DNA of 62,510 nucleotides, filler included, from Hausera hauseri (Eukaryota), in NCBI GenBank assembly GCA_046269625.1. It is 11 parts of 11 records of this genome, joined end to end, with 100 filler letters (N's around TTAATTAATTAA, not from the genome) between each part and the next. Parts side by side here need not be neighbours in the genome. Positions count along the whole stretch, not along the records: positions 18,432 to 26,328 come from JBJURY010887622.1; 10 more parts are not named here. One strand, written 5' to 3'. The notes beneath the pieces are model-generated. The model did not search any database, had not been told where the DNA came from, and saw only the letters and a list, made by a program, of their open reading frames with translations. Shown here piece by piece: positions 2,574 through 35,964 of the stretch. Every line of letters starts with the position of its first letter. Within the stretch, counting starts at the first letter, position 1. The position numbers were made by a program, and so were the translations under genes.

Positions 2574-4340
2574 GATTGTTCAAAATTAAAGGAAGGACAA
2601 AAATATTCATTGGTAGATCTAGAGAAATGTCCAGAAGCGGACCCGGAGCACCTAATAACAACGACAGGCCACACCTATTACGTGTATCAGGAATCAGGGT
2701 TTATTAAGGTTAAGATAAGAGAGTGCGATCTAAAAAAGTCATTCTTTTTGTTCAACTGTACATATTATTCAGGTAATTCTGCAATAATGGAGCCTACAAC
2801 TCCGTTCGAACCAATAATTATTTTACGAGCTGAATGTCAGGATGCATATAAAATCGGAGTAATCACAGTCCAGAACGCTCAGATTCCAGCTGTACGAAAT
2901 AAAATAAAATACACTCGAATTTTCAGAGCTGGAAAGATTGACAAAACTAGTGAAGGGTCCTGCGTTGGAGTGAATTACGATGTAGGAGGTATTATTGCGC
3001 CAAGAACAGTTGCCATTGAGGATTATCAAGTCCAATTAAAAGAGTATGAAGCATTGTTTGATTCCAAAACTAAAATAATGACTACTATGAATGAATGCGA
3101 ATATGAAAACGGTGAATGTGACACTGGAGAATCTAAGATGACGTGGGAAGTATCAACGGGTAAATGCCATCTTACATTATTAAAAGAAGGGAGGTTCAAC
3201 AAAACGGTCGGAAAGACGACAGAAAAAGAAACAGCTACTTTTAAGGAAGGACAAAAAGATGTTAGAATGACGGAAGTCGCTACTGTGGTATACTCAGAAA
3301 ATCCTCAGGATATGATGCGATTTAAAATTACCGGAACGATAAGAAAATGTAATGAAGATATATCCAAAACCAATTATAAAGGCCAAAATTTGTCTTTAAA
3401 AGAAATCCCTGGTGCCAAAATGAAGCTAGATAAAAGGGATATAAAGTTAACGCAACACTTTGATAATAAAATTGATTTCTTAATCAACTATGTAAGAATA
3501 GAAATCAGAAGTCTATACCGAGAAATAATAATGAACGAATGCAAATTGAATTATGAAATAATGAGGAATAAACTGGCTGTAGTGATAACTAATCCAGATA
3601 TGGTGGCACCGGTAATGCCCTTTGGCCAAGGAGTAATCGGAAGGATCATGGGTGAGGCACTGATCACAATAGAATGTAAGAAAGTAGAAGTTAAGTTGAG
3701 ACCCACTACGGAATGCACGACGGAACTACCGGTGGACTACAATAACGAACCAAGATACGTAATGCCAGTAACAAGAATTCTTCTAGACGCTGAAGTTAAG
3801 CCAAACTTGTTGATAAACTGTACATATAATATGTCGCCGATGTTTAAGATAAATGATCAGTGGATAAGAATGCCAAAACGGGAACGTGTAACACCGCCTG
3901 AAACACTCAGCCTAATAAACTTACAGAAAAATCATAAATTTGAACCACTTACCGGTATACCTCAAGGAGGAATTTATACCGAACAAAATTTAGAGGATTA
4001 TAGACGAATGCTATTATTCCCACAACAGCGACAGCGAGTAATAACGGAATTAACCAGAAAAGTAATGTGGGACGGTGAAGGATCACCACAATGGGAAAAT
4101 CTGATGGGTCGAGATTATCTAAAAAAGGTTACTCGAAATGTAATGGAAAAGATGTGGGGAAAGTTTTTATATTTTGGCCAAGCAGCCTCAGGATTTTTAG
4201 CCATATATTTTATGATTAGCACATTGCGAACGATATTTACCGCTCTCAGCAAAGCTTATGGGATTCATGCAGCAGTTGGATGCTCATGGAAAATTATAAT
4301 AGCCGTTATACCAGCAGTAGCTAGTTGCTTCCTAGCAAGA
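2562..4340 (+). CDS. env: Chuvirus-like (gB-type/class III) envelope glycoprotein ectodomain plus transmembrane region
   Basis: N-terminal IV(A/T)YDC..YSLVDLEKC; GEALITIECKKVEVKLRPTTECTTELPV..PVTRIL; GGIY..L..YRRMLLFP; WGKFLYFGQAASGFLAIYFMI. This matches the motif series I recall for chuviral glycoproteins. A TAY>TAA nonsense change is at 2571. Confidence 0.8.
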
Positions 4341-4805
4341 CATGACGCAAAATGGAAAAGAAGGATACTCAAAGACAAAAATAAAGATTTAGAGAATAAC
4401 TCACCGTACAGTACGCTTAATAGAAAGGAGGATGATGAGAATAGCAACTCCCCAAACACAAGTAAACATATCAATAAATATATGAAAAGATTGAGGCGAG
4501 TTTCATGGACGTCATGGAATCGAAAATACAAGAAGACATTAATGTCACAATTACCGAAAATAAATTTCGCTGACGAATATAATGGTCAAGCTATTATGGT
4601 TCCAACAGCACCTCAATATACAGGATTGTCACCCCAATGTACGGGATCAATAACACCGGAGCAAGGATACCTTTCAGAACAGAAAGAGATGTATCCAATA
4701 TACCAAGTACTAAGAATGAAACGAAATTGTGACGAAAATCAGATGCCCTATAATCGCGATACCACTTGCAAGGTAAGTGAGGATTACCAAAAACAATCAT
4801 CAGCA

Positions 4806-5726
4806 AGGCCTGAAATAATGACTGACATAAATGGGTACCCAATGATTGCTCTAATAGACACAGGATCAACAACCACAATAATGGGAAGAAACCAATTGCC
4901 CCTGGAACTAGTAAAGAAACTGAGAAAACCCTCCGAGACGTTAATAAACGTCGAAGCATTTGGCACGGAAGAGAAGATAAGGACAGTCCTCGACGCCAAA
5001 GTTACAATATGTATTCAGGTAATTAAACACACCGTAAGGGTGGCAGAACGTTTAACAAATGAAATATTAATTGGATGTGATATCTTGAATCAGTTGGAAG
5101 ACGCATATATCGACTTAAGCACAGGTCAAATAAGGAAATTTAATACGAAACAGCATGATGGAGCGGTGTCATTGATAAAAGATATTGTAATTCCACCACG
5201 TTCCGAAATAATAGTATCTGAAAAAATAGAAGGCAAATCTCTCGGTAAAAACGTATATTTCGAACCATCCATAGTAACCATGGAAAAGTATGAAATACTG
5301 ATAGCACCTCATATAGACAGAATAAGAGACGGAAAAATCCATTTACGGATTTGTAACACGGGACGAAAAGAAATGAAGCTAAAAAGGAATACTAGAATGG
5401 GATGCGTAATGGTGGTGGAGGATACGCTAGAAAGTTCTAGGGAAGGCACTAATTCTGTCATCTCAGAAGTAGATACAATTGAAAAAATGATGGCAGCAAA
5501 ATTAAGTAACGCAATAAGCAAAGTGAAAACAAAAGACAAGACTAGTGTTATTAATTGGGATGAGAAATTACAGGATTCTAAAGTGTTGACAGACGAGGAA
5601 AAGAATAAGTTACAAGAACTCCTAATAAAAAATAATGATCGCTTTAAACAAAATGACTATGACTTAGGAGTTATGAACGTTATACAACATTCTATTAAAC
5701 TAAAAAACGGGCAAGATAAACCAATA
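4806..5726 (+). CDS. pol: Aspartic protease, dUTPase-like linker and RT N-terminus, in frame with the glycoprotein (ORF 2610-5726)
   Basis: ALIDTGSTTT (DTG at 4857-4865), ILIGCDIL, IVIPPRSEIIV..LRICN, DLGVMNVIQHSI. Confidence 0.9.
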
Positions 5727-5826
5727 NNNNNNNNNNNNNNNNNNNNNNNNNNNNNNNNNNNNNNNNNNNNTTAATTAATTAANNNNNNNNNNNNNNNNNN
5801 NNNNNNNNNNNNNNNNNNNNNNNNNN
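5727..5826. other. Artificial contig spacer (44 N + TTAATTAATTAA + 44 N); identical spacers at 10291-10390, 18332-18431, 26329-26428, 30552-30651, 35965-36064, 40212-40311, 45432-45531, 51470-51569, 58401-58500
   Basis: Ten identical 100-nt blocks whose 12-mer puts stops in all six frames; the sequence class changes abruptly across each one. Confidence 0.98.
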
Positions 5827-6389
5827 ATGCTCTAATTATCTTTCCAGGCTGCATCTCTAGTTCCATACTATCCCATTTTAGTCTTCCGGTTTCTCGAGCC
5901 TGTTTGCAGTGTTTTCTTTCTAAATTATCGAAGAATGTCCTTGCATTAATCCACAATGAGAAATACTACGAGATCGTCTCAGCATACATTCCATGCCGTC
6001 CAAGGATATCAACTCTTGTTGTTGGTATAGAAAATAACGCTTCTCCCTTTTTCTAATTTGTGGGATCTGGCATCCTCACATGCCTCTAAATCCATTAGTG
6101 ACTATTTTTGCCCAAGCTTAAATCTATCGCAGTCGTATACAGTAACGGCACCCATCTGTCTTATTAGCATCATTATGGTGAGTAAACTGATTAACCAATT
6201 AGATTCATTTTTCCGGTTGCTACTATCCGTTTTCGTCAAGTTCCGTGAAATGTCTTCGAGTCTATTGTTGCTACTGGTTCTTTTGTCTTCTTCCTTATCA
6301 AATAATCTTGACCACTTTACTTCTCAAGGAAGTTTACTTTTTTTTTTTTTTTTACTTTTTTTTAGTTTACTTTTGGATAACTTGAAACG

Positions 6390-7247
6390 TCAACTTCTTA
6401 TTGTCCTAGCTGCGTTACATATCGCTTTTTCTTTATCATCTATTGTGTCTCCTCGAAGGCTTGAATAATTTACGATTCGTATTAAATTTCTCATTAGTTC
6501 ATTTAATTCTTCGTTTTTAGTACGGAAAGTGGGAAGTGACAATTGCCTCAGTTCTCTAATCAATTCTTCGTTATAATCTGCTTCTTCTCGGGCCTTTCTA
6601 GGCCTACCGATTGGGCGTTTTGATTTTCGGGCAATAGTCGTTATTCCACTTGATGGCACTAGGTTCTTATCGTATTGTTCCTTGTCCTCATTTGTTTGTA
6701 AATATTCGAAATACATTGCAGCATCCCATACTCCCATGATTTGTCCTACGCACAGCTCTGTCTTAGCCTTACGCGTGGCTTCTTCCTTTGTCTCTGCATT
6801 AGCTATTATTACTACTATTCGATTTTTCTCACCAGGAATAATTCCAACGTCTGTTAGTAGTTCTAAATCATCGAGTATTCTACCTCTAAAGTGAAATCCG
6901 TAATTTAGCTCATTTGTTTCGCCATTCTTTAATAACCACTCCCTTATATCCTTTAGCTGAGAATGTGTAGCTAGCTTACACTCATTTTCTTCCATCCACT
7001 CGGATAATGTCATTACTTTTATTGATACCTCAGGTTTATCTCTCAAGATATTCGCATACTTTTTCATCAAAAGTTTCGGAACCGCGCTGTAGATTGTGTT
7101 CTTACTAGATAATTTCGTCAAGGACGAAATAAGTTGTCTTAGCTTATTTTCAGAAATATTTACGTTAATTAATTCAATTAGTTCCTTTTCGGTTATTGCG
7201 GAATCCAAGAGCATCTCCACATTGAATTTCCTGTTTTGCGGATACAT
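6390..7247 (-). CDS. Spacer protein with ubiquitin-like domain and AT-hook-like motif
   Basis: YGFHFRGRILDDLELLTDVGI resembles the Ubl motif LIFxGKxLxDxxxLxDYxI; RPIGRPRK at ~6595-6620. Confidence 0.55.
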   Translation of the reverse strand: MYPQNRKFNVEMLLDSAITEKELIELINVNISENKLRQLISSLTKLSSKNTIYSAVPKLLMKKYANILRDKPEVSIKVMTLSEWMEENECKLATHSQLKDIREWLLKNGETNELNYGFHFRGRILDDLELLTDVGIIPGEKNRIVVIIANAETKEEATRKAKTELCVGQIMGVWDAAMYFEYLQTNEDKEQYDKNLVPSSGITTIARKSKRPIGRPRKAREEADYNEELIRELRQLSLPTFRTKNEELNELMRNLIRIVNYSSLRGDTIDDKEKAICNAARTIRS

Positions 7248-10588: not shown

Positions 10589-13500
10589 TTGCATAAGCTG
10601 ACTTTAGAAAGTCCAGAACTTTCTGAAGTACCACCCACCTTGTGGGCGCAAACAAAATATGATGTGGGATTGATAAAGGATCAAATACCAATTCAAATCA
10701 CTCCTAAAACATCTTACAGGCCAAAAATACCACAATACCCTTTAAAACCTGAAGCCATTACAGGCATTACACCTGTATTCCATTCACTTTTGGAAGCAGG
10801 GGTAATTGTTCCTTGCCCAACCTCACCTGTTAGGACACCGATCTTTCCTGTGAAAAAGATCCGCTCCACCCCTCCCGATGACTGGCGTTTTGTGCAGGAT
10901 CTCAGAGCGGTGAACGCTGCGGTTCAAGCACGTGCACCCATCGTTCCTAATCCATATGTGATCTTATCACAAATACCGCCTGGCTCCACCCATTTCTCAG
11001 TCATCGATTTAGCTAACGCCTTTTTTAGTGTTCAGGTTCATCCTGATAGCCAATTCTGGTTTGCATTTGAGTTTTTGGGTAAATCTTACACTTTCACAAG
11101 ACTCTGCCAGGGGTACTGTGAATCACCAACCATTTTCCACCAGGCCTTAAAAGACAGCCTGGCAGGTTTCAGTCTTCCACCTGGGTGTGCATTGCTTCAA
11201 TATGTTGATGATCTACTTCTTGCAGCTCCTGATGAGCAATCATGTAAAACACACACAGTCCGCCTTTTGCAATATCTTGCGGCTGAAGGTCATAAGGTCT
11301 CATTGTCCAAACTTCAGTTTGTGTTGCCATTAGTTACATTTCTGGGCCACAAAATCTCAGCAGCAGGAAGAGAGCTTGCAGCTACACGAGTTGCAGCCAT
11401 TGTGTCTCTACCACTTCCTGAAACTAAAAAACAATTGATGTCTTTTCTGGGGTTATGTAGTTATTGTCGACATTTTATACCAAACTACGCAGAGCATGAA
11501 GCACCCCTGCGCGCCGTTTGTCATGCTAAAGGCCTTCTAATGAGCTCTAAATTGACTTGGACTCCATCTGCATTGACTGCATTTGAGACCCTGAAATCTC
11601 AATTGCAAAAAGCACCCACCCTAGGTATTCCTAATCCAACACGCCCATTTGTGCAGGCTGTGGATGAAAGGGGTGGATGTATGACGTCTGTTTTGATGCA
11701 AAAGCATGGTGACCGGATGAAACCAGTGGCATACTTCTCATCAAAACTTGACCCAGTTGCTGCTGGACTTCCTCTTTGCTTGCGCGCTGTGGCAGCAGCT
11801 GAAAAATCTGTTTTGGCAAGCAGAGACATCGTGGGGTACGCAGATTTGACCTTGCTCGTGCCACACGCTGTCACTCAAATTCTAAATGAACAAAAAACCG
11901 CTCATTTATCGACCGCTCGTTGGCTGAGATATCATTCTACTCTTCTTGACATGCCCAACATCACCATTCAACGTTGCAACGTCTTAAATCCAGCCACTCT
12001 TTTACCTTCTCCTACTGAAGGAACTCCACATGACTGTTTAGCTGAACTTGAAGTGCTCTGCACTCCAAGACCTGACTTACAACAAGAACCTCTTGAGCAT
12101 CCCGACTGGGAACTTTTTGTAGATGGCTCATCTTCACGTGACCCTCACACTGGTTCTATTAACAGTGGTTATGCTGTCGTCACTTCCTCTTACACTGTTG
12201 AGGCTAATTCTTTACCACCTTGTTCAGCCCAAGCTTGTGAACTGATAGCGCTTACCAGAGCTTGTCAACTTTCTGAAAATAAATCTGTCAACATCTTCAC
12301 AGATTCCAGATATGCTTTTGGCATTGTCCACGACTTTGGAGCATTGTGGAAGCAACGTCACTTCCTGCGCTCTAACGGACAACCAATCTTAAATCATAAA
12401 CTTGTTTCTAATCTTCTTGAAGCCATCACTCTTCCCTCACACATTGCTGTAGTGAAATGTGCAGCACACACAAGAAACACTGACTATGTTTCTAAGGGAA
12501 ACGCAGCCGCTGACATTGCAGCTAAATCTGCTGCTACGTCACTTCCTGCTGCTACTTCACTTCCTGTCAATGTAAACTCTCTGTCACTCATGGTTCATTT
12601 ACCACCCAAGAACACAGAAACACCTGACTCATTCACTCTTGCAGACATGCAGAAACTTTCTACTCCCGCAGAAAGAGCAGCGTGGAAACGCTTGGGGAGT
12701 ACATTCACTGATGGCATCTGGCTAGGCCCTAACAACAATCCTTGTCTACCTCACCATTTCTTTCATTCCTTTGCAGTGTTGATACATGGGCGTGACCATG
12801 TATCCAAAGGGGGGATGCTGAGGGACATTGACACTCATTGGTTTACTGTGAAATTTTTGAAAGTTGCTGAACAATACTGTAACTCATGTCTGATCTGTGC
12901 AACTCACAATGTGTCCAAACCAATAAAAACTACTGCAACAGGTGCACACAAAACAGTGACCGCGCCTTTTCAACATCTAATGATTGACTTCATTGAACTG
13001 ACTCCTGTTCAAAACAAAAAATACTGTCTGGTTGTCGTGGATATGTTTTCAAAATGGGTTGAAGTTTTCCCCTCAAAACATAACACAGCAAACACAGTAG
13101 CCAAAATTTTGTTAACAGAAATCATTCCACGATGGGGAATTCCCCAAAAAATCTCAAGTGATAATGGTTCTCATTTTGCTAATGAAATCATGACTGAAAT
13201 ATCAAAAACATTGAACTTTGACCTAACAAAACATTGTGCTTACCACCCACAGAGTGGGGGAGCTGTTGAACGTGAAAATGGTACCTTGAAGAACAAGTTG
13301 GCCAAACTTTGTGAGGACACACAACAGAACTGGGTTACATGTTTGCCCGTCGCTGTAATGTATATGAGAATGCGAAGGAGGGCTAAGTTTAACCTTAGCC
13401 CTTTTGAAATTCTTTTTGCAGCTCCACCCAATCTTGGCATTGGACCAACGAGAGATCCCACCAGCGATCTAAAACACTGTGATCATAACATGATGAATTA

Positions 13501-13810
13501 CTGTATTGAACTAACCAAACATTTAACATCCATAAGGTCTCAGGTCCAGGGAGGACTTCCTGCTCCTGCGCAGAAACCTTTACATTGTATTTCTCCTGGA
13601 GACTTTGTTATGCTTAAATGTTTCAGGAGAAAGCGCTGGAACTCCCCCAGGTGGACAGGACCGTTCCAAGTACTGCTGACCACCCACACGGCTGTGAAGG
13701 TGGCTGAAAGAGCAACTTGGGTCCACGCCAACCACTGCAAACTCTTCAGGGGGACCAAACCAACCACGGAGGAAGGACCGGGAGAGCCAAATCCACACCA
13801 AGCACCTTAG
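10589..13810 (+). CDS. pol: Retroviral Pol (RT, tether, RNase H, integrase), fish epsilon/ERV1-like; the TTG start is not a real start
   Basis: WRFVQDLRAVN, IDLANAFF, LLQYVDDLLL, FVDGSS..SAQACEL..NIFTDSRY, H..H..CLIC, IDFIEL..SDNGSHF..GAVERENG, WTGPFQV; 1073 aa with no stops. Confidence 0.97.
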   Translation: MHKLTLESPELSEVPPTLWAQTKYDVGLIKDQIPIQITPKTSYRPKIPQYPLKPEAITGITPVFHSLLEAGVIVPCPTSPVRTPIFPVKKIRSTPPDDWRFVQDLRAVNAAVQARAPIVPNPYVILSQIPPGSTHFSVIDLANAFFSVQVHPDSQFWFAFEFLGKSYTFTRLCQGYCESPTIFHQALKDSLAGFSLPPGCALLQYVDDLLLAAPDEQSCKTHTVRLLQYLAAEGHKVSLSKLQFVLPLVTFLGHKISAAGRELAATRVAAIVSLPLPETKKQLMSFLGLCSYCRHFIPNYAEHEAPLRAVCHAKGLLMSSKLTWTPSALTAFETLKSQLQKAPTLGIPNPTRPFVQAVDERGGCMTSVLMQKHGDRMKPVAYFSSKLDPVAAGLPLCLRAVAAAEKSVLASRDIVGYADLTLLVPHAVTQILNEQKTAHLSTARWLRYHSTLLDMPNITIQRCNVLNPATLLPSPTEGTPHDCLAELEVLCTPRPDLQQEPLEHPDWELFVDGSSSRDPHTGSINSGYAVVTSSYTVEANSLPPCSAQACELIALTRACQLSENKSVNIFTDSRYAFGIVHDFGALWKQRHFLRSNGQPILNHKLVSNLLEAITLPSHIAVVKCAAHTRNTDYVSKGNAAADIAAKSAATSLPAATSLPVNVNSLSLMVHLPPKNTETPDSFTLADMQKLSTPAERAAWKRLGSTFTDGIWLGPNNNPCLPHHFFHSFAVLIHGRDHVSKGGMLRDIDTHWFTVKFLKVAEQYCNSCLICATHNVSKPIKTTATGAHKTVTAPFQHLMIDFIELTPVQNKKYCLVVVDMFSKWVEVFPSKHNTANTVAKILLTEIIPRWGIPQKISSDNGSHFANEIMTEISKTLNFDLTKHCAYHPQSGGAVERENGTLKNKLAKLCEDTQQNWVTCLPVAVMYMRMRRRAKFNLSPFEILFAAPPNLGIGPTRDPTSDLKHCDHNMMNYCIELTKHLTSIRSQVQGGLPAPAQKPLHCISPGDFVMLKCFRRKRWNSPRWTGPFQVLLTTHTAVKVAERATWVHANHCKLFRGTKPTTEEGPGEPNPHQAP

Positions 13811-14010
13811 GTTTCACCTAGGCTGCCAACTATTTCAGCACGCTCAACATCATCGGATGGTTGAGACTGCAGTGAAGGAGCACCTACGGGACCACACTCA
13901 CAGCTCAGGCTGCGGTCTACTGTGAGGCGGCGGGTACCAAGACCCACAACTAGGTTGAGGAAGCTGAGCCCAACCCCTCTGTCCTCTCTTTTATCCGAGA
14001 TTAGTATTCT

Positions 14011-14026
14011 TCCTTTACCTTTACAG
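14011..14026 (+). promoter_or_regulatory. Probable env splice acceptor
   Basis: Pyrimidine tract TCCTTTACCTTTACAG ending 25 nt before the env ATG. Confidence 0.55.
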
Positions 14027-14051
14027 CCAAAGAAACATTAAAAGATTCATC

Positions 14052-15824
14052 ATGAACTTGCTGGATAAACACCCATGGAAAACCATGCTGGTTTTAGGAC
14101 TACTCGCAGGTTTGACCTGTGGCATTATTTTTCTATGCAGACACTTTTGTTTATTTCCAGGAGAAGGACCCTGTTACGACCAAGAGACTCCTGCCCTACA
14201 TCGTGCCCGACGTGACCTAACTCAACGTGACCTAACCCACTTGCTAAAACCAGACCATGAACATCCCCATGACTATAGTACTAACTTGTGGTGGCAACTA
14301 ATGAATAAAACAGCCCATGAAGGTAACACGACTGACTGCTATGTATGTGCCCACATGCCCTACTCTACCCATAACTCAGGCCTCCGACCCTTGTCAATTG
14401 ACCCCAACCACCAAGCTTGTTTGTATGCTCTTAGCACCCATCCAGGTATGGTCGAATCCTGGCATGCTAGATCTTACACCAAACCAATCCCTTCTGGTAT
14501 GTTCAATAAAGACACTGATCTCTATCGAAGGTTAGCCATGAGTTCATTAATAGGTAATTTTTCTTCTCAATGTGATAACAATGATCTTGTGCCACTCCCA
14601 CAGACCACCATTAGCTTACCAGAGATCATGAATCTAGCCCATCTAAAACCAGGAAGTTTAGGAATTTTTGTATTCAATAATGGAACAAACCACATGGGAT
14701 ATCTCCCATGGAATCTGTGTGAAACAATTTACACCTTTTGTAATATTCCAAAATCCCAAGACAAAGACAGTCTCCAATATTTAGAGTGTTGTATTTGTAA
14801 ACATAGACATGAACGCCCAAGCCTTAAATTAAATCTTTGGAATGGAGTGGGTAAATACTCTTATGACCCCTGTAAGGAAGCTGATAATACATCTGATTGT
14901 TCAACCCTACTAATTAAACGTTCATTCAACCTCACAAAACTATCTAACGGCCGACATGACACAACTCAATGTAGTCTATATGTACCAGGAAATAAAGGCT
15001 CTCGAGTATTGACTGATTGGTATTTTCTGTGCGGCCATAAAGCATATATTGCACTCCCACCAAAGTGGGGAGGCCTTTGCGTTTTAGTCCAATTATCTAA
15101 CCCTATGTTTGTTTTAAGGAAACCTTCACAGAACCAAAGGCAACGACGGTCAACCATGCCTCATGTAACGAGATGGGGTGGACTGACCACGAGTACAGGA
15201 GTTCCGTGGGAATTCAGAATTTGGAATGGGGGTGAAAAATTCTTCCAATCACTATTCCCCTGGATAGGGGTAGGTGAAGTTCGTGATCATGTAGAAGTTA
15301 ACAGATACGCTCTCCTTCGGCTAATCAATGACACTTACATACTGGGAAATGGTACCCAAAATGAATTAAGAGCCATAAGAAACATGGTTATTCAAAATAG
15401 AGTTATTCTTGATCTTTTGACAGCCTCTCAAGGGGGCGTGTGCAAAATTATAGGCCAAGCTTGCTGTACTTTTATTCCAGATGAGACTAGTGACGGAGGA
15501 GCAATTCATGACGCCCTACAAGACCTGACCCAATTAAAAGAATATGTAGAAAGCGGCACCAAAGGAGCACAGGCCTTTGACTTTTGGGCCTGGCTGACCT
15601 CGGGATCTTGGTGGCAAATTCTCTTAAAGATATGTGCACCTCTTATCACCATTTTGATTTTGTTTTGTTTATTTTTCTTATGTATTGTTCCATGTATCAG
15701 ACACATGATGACAAAAGCCTTTACTGGAGTAACTTTGACCTCTGGCCCTGACACTGACAATGACATGCTTAACCCAACTAAGAAAATGTTGCCTAGAACC
15801 TCCACCACTTTTGTGTTAAAATAA
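14052..15824 (+). CDS. env: Gamma-type retroviral Env (SU+TM), uninterrupted
   Basis: Hydrophobic leader, CYVC, furin site RQRR, immunosuppressive-domain-like IQNRVILDLLTASQGGVC, CX6CC (CKIIGQACC) and a TM helix. Confidence 0.96.
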   Translation: MNLLDKHPWKTMLVLGLLAGLTCGIIFLCRHFCLFPGEGPCYDQETPALHRARRDLTQRDLTHLLKPDHEHPHDYSTNLWWQLMNKTAHEGNTTDCYVCAHMPYSTHNSGLRPLSIDPNHQACLYALSTHPGMVESWHARSYTKPIPSGMFNKDTDLYRRLAMSSLIGNFSSQCDNNDLVPLPQTTISLPEIMNLAHLKPGSLGIFVFNNGTNHMGYLPWNLCETIYTFCNIPKSQDKDSLQYLECCICKHRHERPSLKLNLWNGVGKYSYDPCKEADNTSDCSTLLIKRSFNLTKLSNGRHDTTQCSLYVPGNKGSRVLTDWYFLCGHKAYIALPPKWGGLCVLVQLSNPMFVLRKPSQNQRQRRSTMPHVTRWGGLTTSTGVPWEFRIWNGGEKFFQSLFPWIGVGEVRDHVEVNRYALLRLINDTYILGNGTQNELRAIRNMVIQNRVILDLLTASQGGVCKIIGQACCTFIPDETSDGGAIHDALQDLTQLKEYVESGTKGAQAFDFWAWLTSGSWWQILLKICAPLITILILFCLFFLCIVPCIRHMMTKAFTGVTLTSGPDTDNDMLNPTKKMLPRTSTTFVLK

Positions 15825-15825
15825 A

Positions 15826-16062
15826 ATGAAATTGTGCCTTAAAGTTAGAGACGAAGAAAGTACCCTTACTATTGACTCAGACTACACCGCTGACATTTTT
15901 GTGCTTGATTATGTTAGAGGTGAATCCTCTATCCTATCAGAATTTTCACCCATTTCATCCAGACTTGATCTTCTGAATTTGACAGCATTTTTTGTTCAAC
16001 TTTGTGTTTTTAGACTTCCACCTGAGTACCACGAACTCACAGGACAACATTTCCAAAATTAA
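15826..16062 (+). CDS. Small ORF immediately after env (possible accessory peptide or frameshifted Env tail)
   Basis: ATG one base after the env stop; 78 aa; no recognisable motif. Confidence 0.25.
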   Translation: MKLCLKVRDEESTLTIDSDYTADIFVLDYVRGESSILSEFSPISSRLDLLNLTAFFVQLCVFRLPPEYHELTGQHFQN

Positions 16063-16542
16063 CAATGTTTTCCTTATTTTTATGTTTTAACAATGTTTTC
16101 CTTATTATTTTTATGTTTTCATATTAATGTTTGATTTTCATAATATTCCTTATTTTTTCTGTTTATGTGTTATCATATTATAACCTCTATAATGAAAGGG
16201 TATTAGAAGTAGATTCGATCCTGATCACCTTAAATACACAGGACGACATTTTCAGAATTAAAGCATTTTTGAATAGTTCATTATTTCTTTTATTTTTATG
16301 TTTTATATCCAGTTTATTATTCCTTTATTTTTATGTTTTCTAAACTTATGCTTGCTACAAATCCAGGTTCTTTAAACCAAAAAAACAGCAACTAGCCATT
16401 TCTATTTGAAGTTTATGATAGGCTACTGTTAAATCATGACACATGATGCAGTAGTTTTGATGTATTTTCCTTCAAAGTCTATACTGTCATATGTACCTAT
16501 ATTATATGTTTTGTTTTTTGTTTTTGTCGTTCCTTTTGGAAC

Positions 16543-16554
16543 GAAAGGGGGGAA
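16543..16554 (+). promoter_or_regulatory. Polypurine tract of the retrovirus
   Basis: GAAAGGGGGGAA one base before the TG that opens the LTR. Confidence 0.9.
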
Positions 16555-16555
16555 T

Positions 16556-17284
16556 TGTTAAAGAATTTACTTATATGTATTGTTTAAATATACATTTGCT
16601 TATTTGATGCCCTGTTCAGACAGCAGAAAGGTTTTGTGTTCACCTTTGCTTCAACTCAGAGCAGTGGACATGTTCGTGTGTGTGTCTGTTTCACATCTGC
16701 TCATTAGACACGAACGCTTGTTTTCAACATCCGGATAAAGAAAGGTACCTTTGAACAGGTTGTTTGCATCATTTCTGACAAGTAAGATAAGAAGTCTTAG
16801 CTTGCGAGTTTTCTTTTTCTCATTAGACACAAACCTTTGATAAGTCTCAGGTTGCTGGCTAAAAGATGACAATTATTAAGTACAACTGTTGATAAAGTGT
16901 TTTGAGATTTTATACCATCAGAAGGAGGATGTTTCTTCAGGAATGCGATAATGAGAAGACTGTAACTTTTCAATATTGTTTTTAAGATTATGACCACTCA
17001 TTAGAGGACTGTTTTACCCTGCTCATTATTTTTGATAAATGTAAATGCTTATCTGTAATATGACGCACTAAGAAACTGCATAATAGTGTAATGTTGTACG
17101 TCTGACTCTCAGAGCGCATCAAGACTTCGTCCTGGTGTGTTCTCTCTTTGCAAAGATTAAATCAAGCTTTTTACCTTAAAAAGAGATGTCTTGCAGAATT
17201 ATTTCTTAGACTTAGCCTCTGAAAAGAATTTTTCAAGGAGGAAAGGTTTACTTTTTAATATTCTTTATTTTTTAATTTCCCACA
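16556..17284 (+). repeat. Retroviral LTR (~730 bp)
   Basis: TGT...ACA ends bounded by the PPT and the PBS; ATTAAA at 17156. Confidence 0.85.
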
Positions 17285-17288
17285 ATTT

Positions 17289-17306
17289 TGGTGTCAGAAG
17301 TGGGAT
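17289..17306 (+). promoter_or_regulatory. Primer-binding site, tRNA-Leu
   Basis: TGGTGTCAGAAGTGGGAT is complementary to the 3' end of vertebrate tRNA-Leu(CAA). Confidence 0.92.
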
Positions 17307-17620
17307 TCACTGGGAGTTTTATCTCCACCGCGGAGGACCAGAGACGGACGGGGCTGATCACCGAGACAATTCATTCTCCCTCCACAACCTCCGGTAGACT
17401 TCAGGAGTGAGGAGGACGTCCTCCTTTGATCCTCCGGGGAACGGGGAGCGGCTCCAGCTGGATTCTCGAACCAAAAGCTGCGAGACACCTAGTTAAGGTA
17501 AAAACAATCGTTCTCATATAAATTGTAAGTTCTAAACTTATAAGTTGGAACCGAGGACAGTAAGCTCTGAAATTAGAAGTAAGAGCCGAGAGTAGGTTTT
17601 TCACTAAGAAAAACTGAGTT

Positions 17621-17749
17621 TGTAAGTCTGAAATATTTTAGTTTTTTAGACCGAGGGTAAGTTTTCTTTAGGAAAGCCGAGGATATTGTAAGTCTGAAAT
17701 ATTTTAGTTTTTTTAGACTGAGTGTAAGTTTTCTTTAGGAAAGCCGAGG
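17621..17749 (+). repeat. Two ~65 bp tandem repeats in the retroviral leader
   Basis: TGTAAGTCTGAAATATTTTAGTTTTTTAGAC..GTAAGTTTTCTTTAGGAAAGCCGAGG occurs twice. Confidence 0.85.
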
Positions 17750-17831
17750 TTGTAGGTTGTTTTAGTAAGACAACTGAGGAAATAAGCTTATTTTTAATTG
17801 AGAAAAAGAGAACGAAAGATTAACAATAAAA

Positions 17832-18331
17832 ATGGGAGCGAATAACAGTAAATACCATGATTATATTCCTAATGGGCCTTTAATAGAAAAAATGAAACGT
17901 CTGCATGGAGATTTTTGTGTCAGATTTGTTCCACAATGGCATTATGAGTTTAATTTCCCCAAGCAAGGTTCTTTAGAACCAGAATACATTAGGAAACTTG
18001 AAGAGCAATTATTACAGCAAAAACAGAAGATGGTTTCAATGACAAAAATTCCACAGAAGGTATTTTTAGCAATGCACGAACATGAGGAAGCATTTAAAGT
18101 GTGGAAAAATGAATCTAAAAATGCGATTGGAAAAACAGAATCTAAAATGTTACAAATGACTCAAAAAATTGAACATTTACAGAAACAATGTGCAGAGAAG
18201 GACACACAGAAAGAAAATAGGAAGTCAAAACGGTTGTCTAAACATGGTTTGTCTAAGCTGAAAAACTCTTTTTTCTCTCTCCCTCACACACATGACACTG
18301 AGACGAATGGGTCCACTCCTCCGCCCCCCTC
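17832..18331 (+). CDS. gag: Retroviral Gag N-terminus (matrix), truncated by the contig end
   Basis: MGANNS myristoylation consensus, W..EFNFPKQGSL matrix motif and a proline-rich end; lies downstream of the PBS. Confidence 0.85.
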
Positions 18332-18629
18332 NNNNNNNNNNNNNNNNNNNNNNNNNNNNNNNNNNNNNNNNNNNNTTAATTAATTAANNNNNNNNNNNNN
18401 NNNNNNNNNNNNNNNNNNNNNNNNNNNNNNNAACTATTAGAACGTTACATAAAGAACGTTAACCAAATTCTGCAATATTATTGTCCTCAAAAAGACATGT
18501 ATATAAAAATAAATAATAAGTAAAATTATATATTTTTAATTTGTTTTAATATTGGATCTAAAATAAATACATTATAAAAATTGATTAGACTTCAATTGAA
18601 TTAATATTGATAAGTTTACAGGCTGTCCA

Positions 18630-19480
18630 TCTTAATTAACCGAAGGTTTCCTCATTGCAGATTTCTGAGGTTAATTTTGCCAAGACACCTTTTTCTGCTG
18701 TTGTTCCGGTTGATTTTGATATTTTTGAAAGGGGTTCTGCTGAAAGTTTTTCTTCTGTTGACAATTTTTCGACTTCTCATCATTTTTAGGATGTTTCTTG
18801 GTATTTTCAAGTCTCTCATAATTGACTTCAATTTTCCTAGCCTTATTGACGGCTTCTTTATATGTATCCGGATTTGCAACAATAATGTAATTCTGAATTT
18901 CCTTATTAACTCCATAACAGAATTAATCTAGTAGGGCATCTTCCCTTATATCAACATCTGCATAAGTACTCTGAGCCAATTTCTGAAGGACACATGCAAA
19001 CTCTTGCACCGTTTCACCTTTCCTTTGACGTGGCCTGTTGAACTCTCCTATTCGACCTTTTCTTGATGGGTCTACGAAGAGTCTTTCTTCCAGGGCGTCC
19101 TTAAGGATAGTCCAATCAGCTTTATCTTCTTCGTCTTTTATTTGTGTATAGACATTAAGTGCCATACCTATGGGATGTAAAGGGAGCCGTTTCGTCCTGA
19201 ACTCATCTGTCCAGTTAAAACTTCCAGAGTACATTTCTTATTACATGATGAAGTCTGCATAATCCTGGTCAGGTTTGGCCTCATATTTCTCCACTGGTAA
19301 TACCATAGTTCCTGACAAGTTACTGCCTAAGCTTGCACCTAATCCGCAATTCGACGTTTCTGGGTTCTCGTTCAAATTTATCTCGGAATTTGCGTCAAAT
19401 TTGGAACTACTCCTTGCCGAATCTGTAACAGAAATTGTATTAGTAGCGTGTATTTTACGTTTATTGCGTAAAGAATACGA
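18630..19480 (-). pseudogene. gag: Gag of the glycoprotein-bearing Gypsy group (decayed, truncated)
   Basis: RLPLHPIGMALNVY, LFVDPSRKGRIGEF and QRKGETVQEF align with the Gag at 86-895. Confidence 0.85.
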
Positions 19481-19492
19481 CGCCAGTGTGCC

Positions 19493-19510
19493 TCCTCACT
19501 CGAGGCACCA
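19493..19510 (-). promoter_or_regulatory. Primer-binding site, elongator tRNA-Met-like
   Basis: TGGTGCCTCGAGTGAGG one base after the LTR-terminal TATCA; close to the eMet complement TGGTGCCCCGTGTGAGG. Confidence 0.7.
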
Positions 19511-19511
19511 G

Positions 19512-20222
19512 TGATAAGTTTATGAGTTAGAAAAAGAGTTTGGGTTCTTCTCAACCCTAAACTTATACTATAAAATAATACTCAAAATAGTCTAGGGTAG
19601 TTTGCTCCCAAGACTTTACTTTCTATTCAATCTTATAAGCAGCCTGTGGGGTCTGCTTAGAGAATTAATTTGATGCACGTGTGTAACGATCGCTAGGAGG
19701 TACACTAGCATCGTATCCCCTTTTTATAAGATTTTGGACAACCGTCTTATGGACGGAATACCGAAAAGAGGGCCCTAAGTTTAGCAAATCTTTATTTAAC
19801 CTTATAATATATATAAAAGAAAATAATTTACTGTAAAAAATCTGTATTAAATATTACATAAAACAAAAATTACACAATAAAAATAATACTCACAGCAATT
19901 ATAATACATAGAAGTTTCGGCAATAATACGAAAGTGACACAAGACAAAAATATAAGTCTGTCTGTAATGATCTGTACACATGCTTATATACTATTCCATG
20001 TGATAAATGTGATAAAAAAATTCGGTCAATAATTAAATGACAATAAAAATTCAGGTCAATAATTACATGGTAATATCCATGTGATAAAAAATTCAAATCA
20101 ATAATTACATAGCAATATCCATGTGATAAAAATTCAGGTCACCGATATAATTTATATTTTTAGTTATTATTATTGTGTTATCTGGTTTTGCGAACCTCGA
20201 ACATAACTGTTAAGTATCAACA
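19512..20222 (-). repeat. LTR (~710 bp) of the Gypsy element, with ~41 bp tandem repeats at 19995-20140
   Basis: Starts TGTTGATA after the PPT and ends TATCA before the PBS; repeat unit TATCCATGTGATAAAAAATTCAGGTCAATAATTACAT. Confidence 0.8.
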
Positions 20223-21589
20223 CCTCCCTCCTCAGATGGCGTTGTCCTCAACACCAGAGGGTAGGTTTCTAAAATACCGTTTGCATATCGGTAATTGGCG
20301 GAATCTAACCGCAACCACTGATTGTCCTTCCGGATTTTCTTTTTCAAGGTGACTGTTTCACGGGTCGATCTTTTCTTTTTACTTTTTGTAAGGTCAATTA
20401 GAATGGAATCGTCTGAGTTTATAGTAGGAACCATTTCACTGGTAGTTGGTTGGTCCGAAATTGAAGTCTCTGAGGGTTTATCAATGTCCATTGGTTCAGA
20501 AATTGGATTAGAAATAATTTTTGATAAAACTTGTCGAGGAATTTTTATTAATTCTTGTGTATCAGATTGTACTTGTTCATGTGTCTCATCATTATCTGTT
20601 TTATATTCACAAATTGATTTATAGATTTTTAGCATTATAAGAGCCTTTTCTCGGGTACGAAGGGGATACACTATATCATTATATTTCATCAAAATTTGTT
20701 TTTGAGTGAGTTTCTTATCCGGATTTATTTCACAATGATACAGCAAGTCGCGGATACCGTGAATGGCATTAATGTCCATCAGATCCAGATGCAAATTAGT
20801 ATTGTATAGATCCATACCAACGATTAACCTTCCGTTTAATTTTTGTCTAATTAGAGATCTGGATTGATAAGAATCCATCTGTCCTGGGATATCTGCTTCC
20901 TTTAAGCCGGTAATCTGGCTATTGTAATTGTCGATTCTATCTCTTGGGGTGATGACTTCGTCGAGGATAATGTTTCCCTGTAGGTCCATAATGGTTACTT
21001 CTATCAACGTTATTTTCTTGTTTCGTAATGGCGTTAATAGATAGGCGGAGTTAACTGCTAAGACATATATTCTATTTTCTTTTACTTTTGGTAATCGACA
21101 GAAGGACATTCCAGATACCAATTGTTCTCGGTTTGGTAGGTTGGCAGGGTAAAGGGGTTTCTCGCATTCTATTTGGGGTAAATTTTCTCTCCGAGTCACT
21201 TCGATATAGACAATTGGGGCTTGTCTACCATATGCTCGTAATATAATCGTAACGTTCTTATAGAATCTTTTGTCCAATCTAACGGTTGAAAAAGGTGTGA
21301 CTTCAAGGATATCAGTAAAATCTTTTAGATGAGCTCTGCTTTTTACCTGCAACATTTCTTTCGCCACGGATATATATACAGAAGTTGTTCGCGTGGAGAT
21401 ATCAATAAGATCAGAAAGTTTTGTTGAGGCGTTTGGCAGTTTGATAATCAATCCAGCCCTTTGGTCGACCAGATGGCCTTTAAGATTATTTGGGATAAGA
21501 CTGGATTTTCCAAAATACATATAATCCTTCTCGACTGTCTGATTAATGTTGTTGAGGATATTGAAATAGAACGACTTTGTTCTTTCCAC
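20210..21589 (-). CDS. Retroelement 3' ORF with a DEDDh exonuclease-like (REX4/ISG20-type) domain; catalytic acids appear to be substituted
   Basis: VTIMDLQGNIILDEVITPRDRIDNYNSQITGL..LNGRLIVGMDL..IRDL matches the REX4/ISG20 scaffold. ExoI reads LAVNSA and ExoIII reads TREKA. Confidence 0.75.
   Translation of the reverse strand: MERTKSFYFNILNNINQTVEKDYMYFGKSSLIPNNLKGHLVDQRAGLIIKLPNASTKLSDLIDISTRTTSVYISVAKEMLQVKSRAHLKDFTDILEVTPFSTVRLDKRFYKNVTIILRAYGRQAPIVYIEVTRRENLPQIECEKPLYPANLPNREQLVSGMSFCRLPKVKENRIYVLAVNSAYLLTPLRNKKITLIEVTIMDLQGNIILDEVITPRDRIDNYNSQITGLKEADIPGQMDSYQSRSLIRQKLNGRLIVGMDLYNTNLHLDLMDINAIHGIRDLLYHCEINPDKKLTQKQILMKYNDIVYPLRTREKALIMLKIYKSICEYKTDNDETHEQVQSDTQELIKIPRQVLSKIISNPISEPMDIDKPSETSISDQPTTSEMVPTINSDDSILIDLTKSKKKRSTRETVTLKKKIRKDNQWLRLDSANYRYANGILETYPLVLRTTPSEEGGVDT
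20223..20233 (-). promoter_or_regulatory. Polypurine tract
   Basis: GAGGAGGGAGG immediately before TG; overlaps the last codons of ORF 20210-21589. Confidence 0.75.
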
Positions 21590-21974
21590 TGATTCGGATC
21601 CTTCTTGAACTAAAAAAATAGATTAACACCAACCAAGAAACGTTTGAAAGTGATTTATAACTGTAAAATCGTTTATTTGATTTGCAATTTTGGTAGGTCG
21701 TAAAAATCTTAACGGCCTTGTCTTGTACTACTGTACAATAATTTACAATTACATTCATTAATCGACTTTCTTGTCGTATAATCTTTTTATTTGTCCAATT
21801 CTTATCGGTAAAGAAGGTTGGCGGACAATTTTGCCGTTTATATTCGGTCAATTTTATATCTTGACAGTTGTCGTTATCAAACAGTTTATGTTCGGCAATT
21901 TGCCGATTTCCATTATTCAAAGAAGGCGCGCTTATACTATCTGATAAATCATCTTGGGAGTTTTCCCTTAACAA
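21543..21974 (-). pseudogene. Probable frameshifted upstream continuation of the 3' ORF
   Basis: Same strand, overlapping and of similar composition; no motif recognised. Confidence 0.35.
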
Positions 21975-22984
21975 TTTTAACTGCTTTATTATTTCTTTTA
22001 TTTTAGCTCATTCCGATTGGCAGTAAACTAATATGTTTTGACTTTGCGGGGCATTGGAAGGGTTACTTTTACTACTTTTCACTCTTAGATCCATGAGAGC
22101 ATCAATAAACATCAGAAAATGAGAATATGAGAATAAATCAAACTTCTCTATGACCGGTGTTCTGAAAAAGCCAATTTCAAATGTGAATATATTTTTCAAG
22201 AGCAGCATTTATGCCTGTGGTGCCATGAATTCTGTGCAGTTACCTAAAAAGGAATGAATATGTAGCTTTTTTTTATCATAATTTGTACAACTAAAAGTTA
22301 GAGAATTTGTGGTGCATATTTGCCCACATTAACCTTAGTATTTTATTGTAAAATTATTGTTTTAATATTTGGTCAATGGGCTGTAAATACAAAAGTTTTG
22401 TCCCTCAGTTAAATTTTTTGTTACTTATGCAAATTCCAAATTTGGACAACATAATCAAAAAGAATATCTCGAAAACTCGGTAAATTCGATTTGGAATTTG
22501 TCATATCGATTAATTTATCAAATCCAAATATTGAAATTATCGGTAGTTTGTAAGAATGTATTAATGTTGAAATTTTCAATCTGCTTAGGAACAATATTTC
22601 TTCGTTGAATTTATTTTGTCGTTTTCAAATGTTCGAATTTTAGATGTTTCATCGAATAAGATAACAATTCTCGCAAAGCAGTTTAAATGCGGCCAACGGA
22701 ACCAACAAAACTAGTCATTTTTATTATATGAATTTAAGATATATTCAAAATATATGTTTAAATACTTTACTGAATTAGTACTAAATTATATATATGGATG
22801 TATGAAGACTTAAAAATTGTGATGTATGTCAAAAATCAGTTTCAAAATCTAATTTTTCAAACAATTAAAAATCATACAAAAGGATGATGAGATTATTAAA
22901 AACAGATTTGCAGCTGTTGACGAACAACAAAAATTATCGATTATTTGAGGAACAAATCTCGAACTCCCAAAGACATGTGAACCA

Positions 22985-23245
22985 ACTTGATTGTCATGAA
23001 GATAATTCTTCATACATAGGAGAGACCTCGCGACATCTTTACACACAAGTTGGTGAACATTTCAATGGACAAGGCACGAAATCTGTGGTAATGGTAAACA
23101 AATAATTTCAAAATTTAAAATTCTAAAATCTAATTTAAGACACGAAAATAGAAGACAAATTGCAGAATCTGTTTGTATTAAGACGTTTGCTCCATCACTT
23201 AATAAACAGACAGATTTTGTGAAGTGCGTTTTTCTGTATAATGAT
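22985..23245 (+). pseudogene. Penelope-like GIY-YIG endonuclease remnant
   Basis: C..DNSSYIGETSRHLYTQVGEH ... NFKILK...IAESVCIK..APSLNKQ. Confidence 0.8.
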
Positions 23246-23343
23246 TAATTTGCAAGTATTTCACGGATTCGTTCTGTTACAGTTTGACATTGCAATTTAC
23301 TAGCGAAAAGCAGTGGAAAATTTGTTTCTATAACATTATTTTA

Positions 23344-23380
23344 CTGACGATGATGGAGAATCCATTGAAATATATTTTTA
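23344..23380 (+). ncRNA. Degenerate minimal hammerhead ribozyme of the Penelope remnant
   Basis: CTGACGA, stem ATGGA/TCCAT, GAAA, then palindromic ATATAT; about 100 nt 3' of the GIY-YIG end. Confidence 0.5.
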
Positions 23381-23487
23381 TAAATGGCGTTGTTTGATTT
23401 TATCTAAAAATTTGCCATTATTTTTCAGATATTTTGAATGTCGTCCTTTATTTTTTTAGAACACTGTTGATTCTGGAAGGCAGGCTT

Positions 23488-33600: not shown

Positions 33601-35964
33601 ATATCGGCTTTAAGCATTCGTTCCACTTCCTTTGTTATGTCGGGCCTTAGCGAATGTGGCGGAGGGTACCATTTCGGCATCTTCTGATCCTCAAGATCTA
33701 TTTCTTTATTCGAACCAGTCTTTTTTTAGCAGAATGGCCAGTTTTAATGTTTTCGCTTTACCAATATCTTCGTCTTTAGCAATAATTGATTTATATCGGC
33801 ATAATAATTCATAGAATCGACAATAAGACTCAGGTGGGAATTTAGTTTCAAGATGAGGTGGAAATTTGGCATACTTGTAAGGCTTTTCTTCAACAGTTAT
33901 TGACGATACTCTATACGTATCGCCTAGAGTAATATAAGCATGAAGTTTGACTGGAGTCTGGACATTATTAGCGATTCTGACCGGAACTCGACCGGAGTGC
34001 ACTCTCGTTAATATATTGCTGAGCATTATATTTGGATCTAACGTATTCTTTGGTTCAAAATATACCCGTTGATCGTCGTCTTGCTGTATTTGAGCGTAAA
34101 TTATCATTTCTGTTCTCGTTGGAATATCTTCGTCTACAGGTATCCATACCTCTCCAAATTTTCTATCCTTAGCGTTTTTCACGCCTTTATTTGGTCTGAT
34201 TTCTATCAATTTTTCTGTTTGCAAGTCAATTTGCAAGTCAGTTTGCAATCTTTTCAGTAAATTACATGCGAGAACTACGTCGTCGGTTAATTGCTCCAAA
34301 ACTGCAAATTCGTGACGGAAAAATTGTCCAGCTATTTGAACTTCTGGGTTCCATTTAAACATCGGTTTTGACATTTGACCAAAAGCTCCCATACTTCCTG
34401 TATCTTTTGCGGATGGAAGGTATAATTGTTCTCTCAGCGTTTGAGGTATTGAATTATTTTTAATGTAAGACATTTCCGATCCAGTATCGATTAAGTCATA
34501 AACTTCCCAATCTTCGATAGTGATTTTGGCGAAAGGTCTTCCTTCTATCACTGTCCCGAAACAGTTTGTTGCTACTTTTGGACGTTTAATTGCAGATATT
34601 TTATGTCCATTGACTTGACTTTCGGGGAGGATACTATATTTTCCGACAATTGTCTTAATTCTTCTTTTGGATATAACTCGTTGTTTTCTACGTGCAATTC
34701 TGCCGTTTCGTGTACTAACCAATGGTTCTCGATTGTTCTTGTGTAGTTCGGTATTCTGGAAGGTTTTTAACCTAGGATTGTCCCAAACCGTTGATCTAGT
34801 TTCTATATTTCGAGATTCTCTCGGAGAATACAACATCTTGGGAGCATCTGCGGATTGTCGGTAACACATCTTTTGTCGGATTCCGTAACGTTTTGTTTCT
34901 TCATAAGGGTCTTCTACGTTAATTGTTCTTTTATAGATTTCCGTCTGATATGAGCTCATTGATCGTTTGTCGCAGTCTTTATAAGTTGGAGCGGTAGGAG
35001 GTAACATAGGTAGTGTTGTTTTAATAACAGAATACGCTTTATATCTATTTATTCCCGAAAGTACTTCTCCTCCCTTAGTCTCGTTATCGTTTGAATCGTT
35101 TTTTCTTGTATTATGCTTTATAAATTTCCGCTTTTGCAAAAATATAGGTCTTTTTCTTCGTTTACGATTGTGATATCCGACGTGACGTTCTACGTCTGAT
35201 TTCATCTGTTTTCTTTGTATGTCTAAGAATTTTCCAAAAGGTGTTATGATCGCAGTTAAAATTTTGCAAGAAAATCCAGTTAACGTAAATATTTCGTACC
35301 CATTTATTACTGCTTGGATGACTGCATTAATCATTTATATTAGAAAATATATCGCTAAGAATCCGGATGCGGCTTGACCGAAAATTAAGAATCTTCCCTA
35401 AATTTTGTGGAGTATCTCTGTGGTTACTCGCTGGTAATGGTTTACGCCAAGTAAAGATTCCCATTTAGTTTGGTATTGTGTATCATCTACTACAGTAGCC
35501 ATAGCTCGATTTAACTGGTGTGTTCGTTGTTGTGGAAAGGCAAGGAATTGTCTGAAAGCCTCAATTTCCTTCGGTCTGTATATACCTTTCGATGAGGTGT
35601 CTTGAAATTTATCGTCTGTAATTTCTTTTGCGAGTTGTTCCTGTCAATTTATTTGGAGCGGCAATAATACCTCCATTTGGCAAGCTGACCCAGTCTGTCT
35701 CACTACGTCTAAACATAGGTTCTCCTAAGTTTGTCTTACAATTTTTAAGGATGGTCTGTTGGGTAGCGTTATCCAATAATACTCTCGTCAGCGGTGTAGC
35801 TAATCTCGGAATATTTTGGTAAATAACAGGAAGTTCCTGAATGCAACGTTTTTTTCCACGTTGATGGGTGCATCTCTCTTTTCACATTCATAGGTTAGCA
35901 ATACTTTGCCTGTCACCCGACCGAAAATTCCTTCTCTCATGGGAATTATTGGTGAAGCCAATTC
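30652..35964 (-). mobile_element. 3' half of a related element: glycoprotein C-terminus/TM - PR - RT - RNase H - integrase - further coding sequence
   Basis: CIQELPV..PLTRVLL and FLIFGQAASGFLAIYFLI (~35340-35400); LIDTGSE; LDLQSGYWQV; AYLDDVM (~33220-33240); TDASKEGIG; ILTDRGRNF..VERIN. Confidence 0.92.

Follow-up and report, generated by a model that had tools for sequence, protein, structure and literature searches.

Burro and GYPSM1, giant gypsy-like elements of planarians, carry env in frame between gag and pol, where it encodes a mononegavirus-type fusion glycoprotein, with ubiquitin/SUMO-like (Ubl) and BCL2-like motifs ahead of env, a dUTPase-like domain between PR and RT, accessory ORFs downstream and an internal region of up to 25 kb (PMC6431247). 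In the part of that description considered here MATH, BIR, ankyrin, Smc and midasin are named, and no exonuclease or AlkB-like gene is. Planarian PIWI is reported to silence BURRO1. The GAG-ENV-POL errantiviruses of nematodes, bryozoans and flatworms have their genes ordered gag-env-pol and encode a class III-type fusogen (PMC13524379); the text and 7 supplements of that work, to the extent covered here, mention neither exonuclease, DEDD nor cupin, and do not annotate accessory ORFs.

Cargo of related kinds has been described in other elements. In the rotifer elements Juno, Vesta and Athena/Terminon a DnaQ-like DEDDy exonuclease (ORF3) lies between pol and the 3' LTR (PMC5408684), for which 3'-end processing was proposed by the authors, and Ty3/Gypsy elements of Phalaenopsis contain an ORF for an AlkB-type 2-ODD, a functional m6A demethylase closely related to plant ALKBH (PMC9289625). 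The host proteins Exuperantia and Exd1 exemplify dead DEDD folds that serve as RNA binders, with the active site lost or kept depending on the lineage (bioRxiv 10.1101/2025.08.03.668247). Host DEDDh nucleases are reported to restrict retroelements, and the arenavirus ExoN to dampen immune signalling.

The locus analysed here lies in a 62,510-nt stretch of DNA from the Hausera hauseri assembly (hereafter the window), which consists of 11 contigs with N spacers between them; the accessory ORF is on the minus strand of contig 4 (18432-26328). The element group of the window shares with Burro, as far as the latter is described in the part considered, the gag-env-PR-RT-RH-IN layout with accessory ORFs downstream, and with the errantiviruses the gag-env-pol order and the class III-type fusogen; Ubl and BCL2-like stretches ahead of env are candidates for a further likeness to Burro. 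It is thus likely not a new group, its assignment to Burro being made by layout. Unlike Burro, the relatives of the accessory gene locus (L001-L004, see below) look shorter (contigs of 13-17 kb), and MATH, BIR and ankyrin were not seen in the pieces available, which are partial (in the slices scanned there was no Pfam match to any of the three or to a dUTPase-like domain). A mononegavirus-type G (Monjiviricetes fusion glycoprotein, E 1e-73) occupies window positions 2787-5774 in frame and is followed by PR on a contig other than that of the accessory gene; RT-RH-IN and gag are also present on other contigs. A Bcl-2-like stretch of the window (E 3.5e-4 and 0.008) and the ubiquitin (E 0.01) and Rad60-SLD (E 0.032) matches of the relative L001 are under curated cut-offs. 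On contig 2, positions 6393-6860, immediately ahead of where G begins, look ubiquitin-like by eye, with a weak match to the L001 N-terminus and none in Pfam.

Other contigs of the window carry unrelated material. On contig 3 (10583-15824), long open frames encode a pol and an env of retrovirus-like type, the former with matches to RNase H, rve and MLVIN_C and the latter to TLV_coat (E 4.5e-12). The presence of a retrovirus of vertebrate type next to elements of invertebrate type hints at contigs from more than one organism. Mutually similar ORFs at 40600-41553, 56461-58445 and 60115-62090 appear by eye to be polymerase/capsid pieces of Polinton/adintovirus type, with no Pfam match.

Like the rotifer ORF3, the accessory gene is an extra ORF with a DnaQ-like exonuclease fold; the rotifer protein is of the RNase D-like DEDDy type, intact and, in the part of the source considered, has no reported AlkB-like domain, whereas the family described here is of the DEDDh ISG20/REX4 type and repeatedly dead. 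The Tyr that would mark DEDDy enzymes in ExoIII is absent from the intact relatives, which have His and match RNase_T/ISG20. With the Phalaenopsis elements it shares accessory cargo of large gypsy elements with an AlkB-like fold, here predicted; the 2-ODD described there is active, whereas the barrel in the window is fused to an exonuclease and has no conserved HxD/E. The dead DEDD fold is kept as in Exuperantia and Exd1, where the site is likewise lost in some lineages only; those two are encoded by the host, combine the fold with SAM or further domains and have had their binding established by experiment, while here binding is our extrapolation. The kind of element, exonuclease cargo (rotifer) and AlkB cargo (orchid) are therefore known; as far as we found, no published report describes an AlkB-like/ISG20-like fusion or its repeated inactivation in retroelements, and the primary Burro papers may annotate an exonuclease.

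The accessory gene and its LTR

The frame of the accessory ORF is stop-free over its 459 codons (the chance of such a frame in contig 4 is ~2e-13), contains the polypurine tract (PPT) in its last codons and ends in a stop codon 11-13 nt into the LTR; a primer-binding site (PBS)-like sequence and a gag follow (Table 1). This arrangement had been read from the sequence in a preliminary description and holds in each part. PPT, TG...CA LTR and PBS are hallmarks of Ty3/Gypsy elements (Metaviridae). The U3 of the LTR has 42-nt tandem repeats at 20015-20128, and an AATAAA is found at 19796; an enrichment of GATA sites in the LTRs was considered and rejected (p ~0.1-0.3). There is no second copy of the LTR within the window.

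Table 1. Features of the accessory gene and its surroundings on contig 4 (window coordinates)
Feature	Position	Strand	Remarks
Accessory ORF, 459 aa as given	20210..21589	-	frame open from 21622; first ATG at 21520 (436 aa); start codon uncertain
AlkB/2OG-Fe(II)-oxygenase-like double-stranded beta-helix, without HxD/E iron motif (predicted)	21185..21589	-	residues 1-135; predicted structure
ISG20/ISG20L2-like DEDDh exonuclease fold, all five catalytic positions replaced (predicted)	20579..21082	-	residues ~170-337; predicted structure and alignment
S/T/P/D-rich tail, variable, probably disordered	20213..20578	-	tails of relatives not conserved
Polypurine tract GAGGAGGGAGG	20233-20223	-	within the final codons of the ORF; TGTTG next, at 20222
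LTR, single, 711 bp, TG...CA	19512..20222	-	ends TATCA at 19512
PBS-like sequence	19493..19510	-	putative; starts TGG (TGGTGCC from 19510), 1 nt past the LTR end
Broken gag, capsid part	18641..19306 (about)	-	interrupted by in-frame stops; lacks a clear zinc knuckle; AT-rich non-coding DNA follows
Splice-acceptor-like site	21610..21625	-	putative; T-run, then AG at 21611-21610; precedes the conserved coding part
Element-related repeat DNA ahead of the gene	21626..22110	-	depth bins, a weak measure

The gag of contig 4 is 45% identical over 192 aa to that of the G-bearing contig 1 and 42-45% identical to the gags of the G group, while the gags of contigs 1 and 5 share 74%. Neither pol nor G is present on contig 4, which carries one LTR only, and apart from the gag homology it has no overlap with other contigs of the window; an overlap with the IN-bearing contig 6 was considered and rejected, none being present. 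Contig 4 thus comprises one LTR flanked by a 3' and a 5' fragment, i.e. either a tandem remnant or an assembly path via the LTR. Beyond ~22100 depth drops and the contig continues as low-depth unrelated DNA. A very deep repeat at 22920-23450 (5,000-6,000 in run X1), by eye a broken GIY-YIG/Penelope remnant, is unrelated to the accessory gene.

Summed contig depth, which is a weak measure and gives no copy number, amounted in X1, a run that may be the source of the window itself, to ~490-850 over the gene, 6 at the contig 4 minimum and 12,000-23,000 over U5 and gag. Around the LTR (19488-20222) depth over U5 and gag exceeds that over U3 and the gene ~20-80 times, and one joint between contigs omits 19788-20207, i.e. 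420 nt of U3; LTR variants with another U3 and a far commoner family with the same U5 and gag are both candidate explanations. Since the difference between U5/gag and gene/U3 is ~20-fold, most elements with this gag may carry a different 3' end.

Relatives behind glycoprotein-bearing polyproteins

A metagenome scan revealed four loci with the accessory gene (L001-L004); scans of viral contigs and a first metagenome scan had yielded no relative of the accessory protein. Both long loci, L001 and L004, encode one ORF of 3,000-3,200 aa with G, proteases, RT, RH and IN, and the accessory gene is downstream, with a short ORF in between in L001 and none in L004. Their G matches Monjiviricetes_fusion (E 9e-84 and 5e-94) and is 33-38% identical to that of window contig 1. 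No PPT or LTR was found behind the gene in these two loci, L004 stopping at the contig end; in L002 and L003 the gene lies 95-100 nt ahead of a purine tract and TGTTG, the tract being the same as in the window. The accessory proteins of all four loci are catalytically intact; over the aligned parts their identity to the window protein is ~27-32%.

Several further features of these polyproteins were noted. Two or three aspartic protease-like domains are arranged in tandem between G and RT in L001 and L004, as also at window positions 33706-35334. Past IN (L001 7709-9037, L004 8308-9621) hydrophobic stretches surround beta-rich repeats that are fibronectin-III-like by eye (Pfam gave weak transmembrane-type matches only for these regions), and an insert between the proteases of L004 (4078-4800) resembles them. 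Small coiled-coil ORFs adjoin the nuclease gene (L001 9207-9872, L004 11583-12005), the one in L004 terminating in a PPPY late-domain-like motif.

In 4 of the 6 accessory ORFs of L001-L004 a YAG lies no more than 2 nt from the ATG (two coincide with the ORF-defining in-frame stop). Together with the acceptor-like AG in the window this makes it a fair inference that the accessory gene is expressed via a spliced subgenomic RNA. Indels among the copies of the window gene fall at 21611-21653, upstream of the acceptor-like site, and none is listed in 20600-21100.

From these relatives, the status of the gene as cargo of G-bearing Ty3/gypsy elements can be regarded as confirmed for the family on the basis of sequence, any link of the dead window gene to G being extrapolated from the relatives. 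The LTR-Gag-Ubl-G-PR-RT-RH-IN-X-Exo-LTR map drawn in the preliminary description is, for the window itself, a composite across contigs. G and the exonuclease occur together in L001 and L004, with intact forms of the gene; the contig of the dead gene is without G. An explanation that we regard as possible, if on the unlikely side, is that the dead gene belongs to a non-autonomous family (gag and accessory gene, no pol or G), or that the Exo-LTR-gag order is an assembly path via a shared LTR, so that the gene is cargo, not of the G-bearing element. The single LTR, the short and broken gag running into non-coding DNA, its lower identity to the G-group gags than that between contigs 1 and 5, the joint in U3 and the fact that none of the listed contigs crosses the full PPT-LTR-PBS path all fit such an origin; the position of the gene behind G-Pol in the relatives and the frame that stays open across the PPT as far as the LTR argue against it. 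This alternative concerns linkage, not protein function, and can be combined with the function favoured below.

Fold, active sites and selection

On its own, the accessory ORF has no match in Pfam, NCBIfam or PHROGs and matches ISG20 only weakly (E 0.002). The AF2 model based on 45 aligned sequences has a pLDDT of 88.6 and a pTM of 0.86 (the single-sequence prediction reached a pLDDT of 31.8), and in the ESM Atlas the whole protein resembles RNase_T clusters at 0.90-0.92. For the N-terminal barrel, a domain absent from the preliminary description, which had recognised the exonuclease, the best structural matches of the predicted structure are ALKBH6 (Z 11.4, rmsd 3.1, 131 residues aligned), Ofd2 (Z 10.6), ALKBH7 (Z 10.4) and cupins (Z 9.2-9.4). 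As the cupin scores are close below those of AlkB proteins (10-11.4), the choice between AlkB and cupin seems not firmly settled for this model, the core being a double-stranded beta-helix. At the sequence level the barrel does not match AlkB (identity to any AlkB 6-14%). The Hx[DE] iron motif is absent from the window protein, and the 5 of 33 members that do contain one carry it at positions that do not align; the sole conserved His of the barrel, found in 28 of the 33, is Ser in the window protein. With no conserved HxD/E among these members, the barrel seems to be metal-free throughout the family.

The exonuclease domain possesses the DnaQ-like fold and the ExoI-III spacing, and its predicted structure superimposes on ISG20 (1wlj, Z 17.9, rmsd 2.8, 160 residues aligned), ISG20L2 (7yw5, Z 17.4) and SDN1 (5z9x, Z 13.8), with PAN2 also matching; the family profile identifies ISG20L2 (E 1.8e-31), ISG20 (2.6e-19) and SDN1 (2.7e-15). 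Fold and motif spacing are therefore those of ISG20/ISG20L2/REX4/SDN1, in agreement with the ISG20/REX4-like fold and the replaced acids first recognised by inspection. Unlike these enzymes, the window protein retains none of the five catalytic residues (A178, N180, T264, L310 and K315 in place of D, E, D, H and D), is fused to the beta-helix barrel and belongs to an element-borne clade apart from host-like proteins. Because 29 of 47 relatives keep the residues of which it has none, the window protein is best regarded as derived from the ISG20/REX4-type family and not as a working member of it. A basic patch in its tail (KSKKKR...KKKIRK) is possibly a nuclear localisation signal.

An exhaustive protein search at E<=0.001 gave 51 matches, of which 31 match RNase_T at E<=0.01; word-indexed homologue searches returned one already-known row and no new relative. 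The family is unnamed (none of 20 members looked up has a usable name). P0025 was dropped as a false match (bacterial SH3), and P0008 (host-like, four repeats) served only as outgroup. Among 47 element-type rows, 29 have all five catalytic residues, 11 none (including the window protein), 1 has one and 6 are incomplete. Intact members read D, E, D/E, H, D, most of them as the DEED variant, which the rotifer ORF3 also has. The 'pseudo'-exonuclease of the preliminary description is hence correct for the window protein; the family is mostly intact, L001-L004 included, and the dead state is derived and probably arose more than once. P215, R216, D239, G258, G278, R280 and Y323 are retained in every dead row that covers them. 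The nearest relative, P0002, is 30% identical and has lost the same catalytic sites. An intact member, P0050, stands for a cluster of 24 near-identical records; of the 15 listed, 11 come from contigs 15.6-17.0 kb long, perhaps the size of its element.

In a tree of the exonuclease domain (without P0027, P0042 and P0043, which are too short), 44 element-type domains are split from 9 host-like ones by a 100/100 branch, and 12 of 13 dead rows group together (82/93, long branches). A second tree was confined to the 33 rows with both domains (9 of them dead) and calculated with the catalytic columns removed; 4 changes are reconstructed on the best tree, at least 2 are forced, and a single clade of dead forms is rejected (p-AU 0.016), even though the exonuclease-only tree leaned towards a single origin. 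Catalysis was thus likely lost more than once, the number of losses being uncertain in view of the grouping in the first tree. A higher positive charge of the dead forms was rejected, their domains having no higher net charge than intact ones (p=0.21).

Copies of the window gene were compared over 20600-21100 (501 bp) in 112 + 19 contigs from two runs, mostly <90% alike, and no indels are listed. Of the best-supported 40 of 123 differences (80% likeness filter), 29 are synonymous, against an expectation of 21-30%, which corresponds to a pN/pS of 0.10-0.16 (p<1e-7); none of these 40 creates a stop, and among them 4 of the 5 catalytic-equivalent codons vary synonymously only. This excess, including the dead catalytic codons, shows purifying selection on the dead form, which is thus a trait conserved in the subfamily and not the decay of one copy. 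The intronless frame, the many divergent copies and the LTR junction rule out a spliced single-copy host gene and support the earlier reading of the gene as element cargo.

Proposed function and its alternatives

The explanation we favour, with a little more than even confidence, is that the accessory gene is the last gene of a Burro-like glycoprotein-type Ty3/gypsy element and that its dead product would, without cutting, bind RNA 3' ends on the element's behalf, holding or shielding them. Within this reading an RNA-end binder or shield has roughly even chances, a protein-only scaffold is unlikely and other variants are less likely still. The dead DEDD domains of Exuperantia and Exd1 are precedents for such binding, and the silencing of BURRO1 by planarian PIWI also fits. 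Counting against it are the net charge of the dead domains, which is no higher than that of intact ones, the Ser at the one conserved His of the barrel and the low identity (about 32%) of the intact, G-linked relatives to the window protein. An ancestral element would have captured a host REX4/ISG20L2-type nuclease together with an AlkB-like domain that was already metal-free, and the gene would be expressed from a subgenomic RNA made by splicing. Probably, intact members trim RNA 3' ends, either of host small RNAs or of the element's own RNA; several lineages would then have dropped cutting and kept binding. The dead form would accordingly block RNA ends of this kind, by capping or sequestering them, and so protect element transcripts from host 3'-5' nucleases or PIWI-pathway factors.

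Rather unlikely, in our opinion, is a protein decoy or adaptor, in which the dead folds mimic a host nuclease of REX4/ISG20L2/PAN2 type or an ALKBH protein and titrate its partners or bring a target to a ubiquitin ligase, with any nucleic acid binding incidental. Such a role would agree with the loss of both active sites under conservation of the folds, with the positive charge not gained in dead domains and with the ubiquitin and apoptosis modules of Burro-type elements in the part of PMC6431247 considered here; on the other hand, a RING motif is present in none of P0001-P0052, the family started as an intact nuclease, and the dead DEDD domains known from the sources considered are mostly RNA binders. 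We consider improbable a housekeeping function in the element's own cycle (export of the Rev/CERV-like kind, packaging, or protection of the ends of genomic RNA or cDNA) without any counter-defence. The fixed position at the 3' end, the acceptor-like sites before the ATG and the basic patch in the tail are reminiscent of retroviral regulatory genes, and the processing role suggested for the rotifer protein is of this kind, but the repeated loss of catalysis and the long branches better suit a conflict-driven gene. Most gypsy elements, moreover, live without such an accessory gene. That the gene is the decaying remnant of an active nuclease with no present function, as the broken gag next to it, a window copy that may be a dead insertion and the uncertain start codon could suggest, is very improbable and largely refuted by the synonymous excess among copies (29 of the best-supported 40 of 123 differences), with non-catalytic residues kept at 4 of 5 sites, a frame that is open though all five positions have changed, and P0002 dead at the same sites.

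Extending the favoured reading of an RNA-end binder, we speculate, tentatively and well short of even confidence, that the gene is a counter-defence of Burro-type elements against small RNAs, consisting of an AlkB-like reader of modified nucleotides and an SDN1/ISG20-like trimmer of piRNAs, which in several lineages independently turned from cutting to capping, so as to sequester piRNA or to shield the RNA ends of the element. If this is true, it would be a retrotransposon-encoded suppressor of PIWI silencing that occurs naturally in live and dead versions; to our knowledge, few animal retrotransposons have factors aimed at host RNA metabolism. The Burro-type layout gains an unannotated gene, and with it an unnamed family of AlkB-like/ISG20-like fusions at the 3' end of enveloped gypsy elements, whose natural live and dead forms offer a direct test of whether PIWI or nuclease defence is fought by cutting or by shielding RNA.
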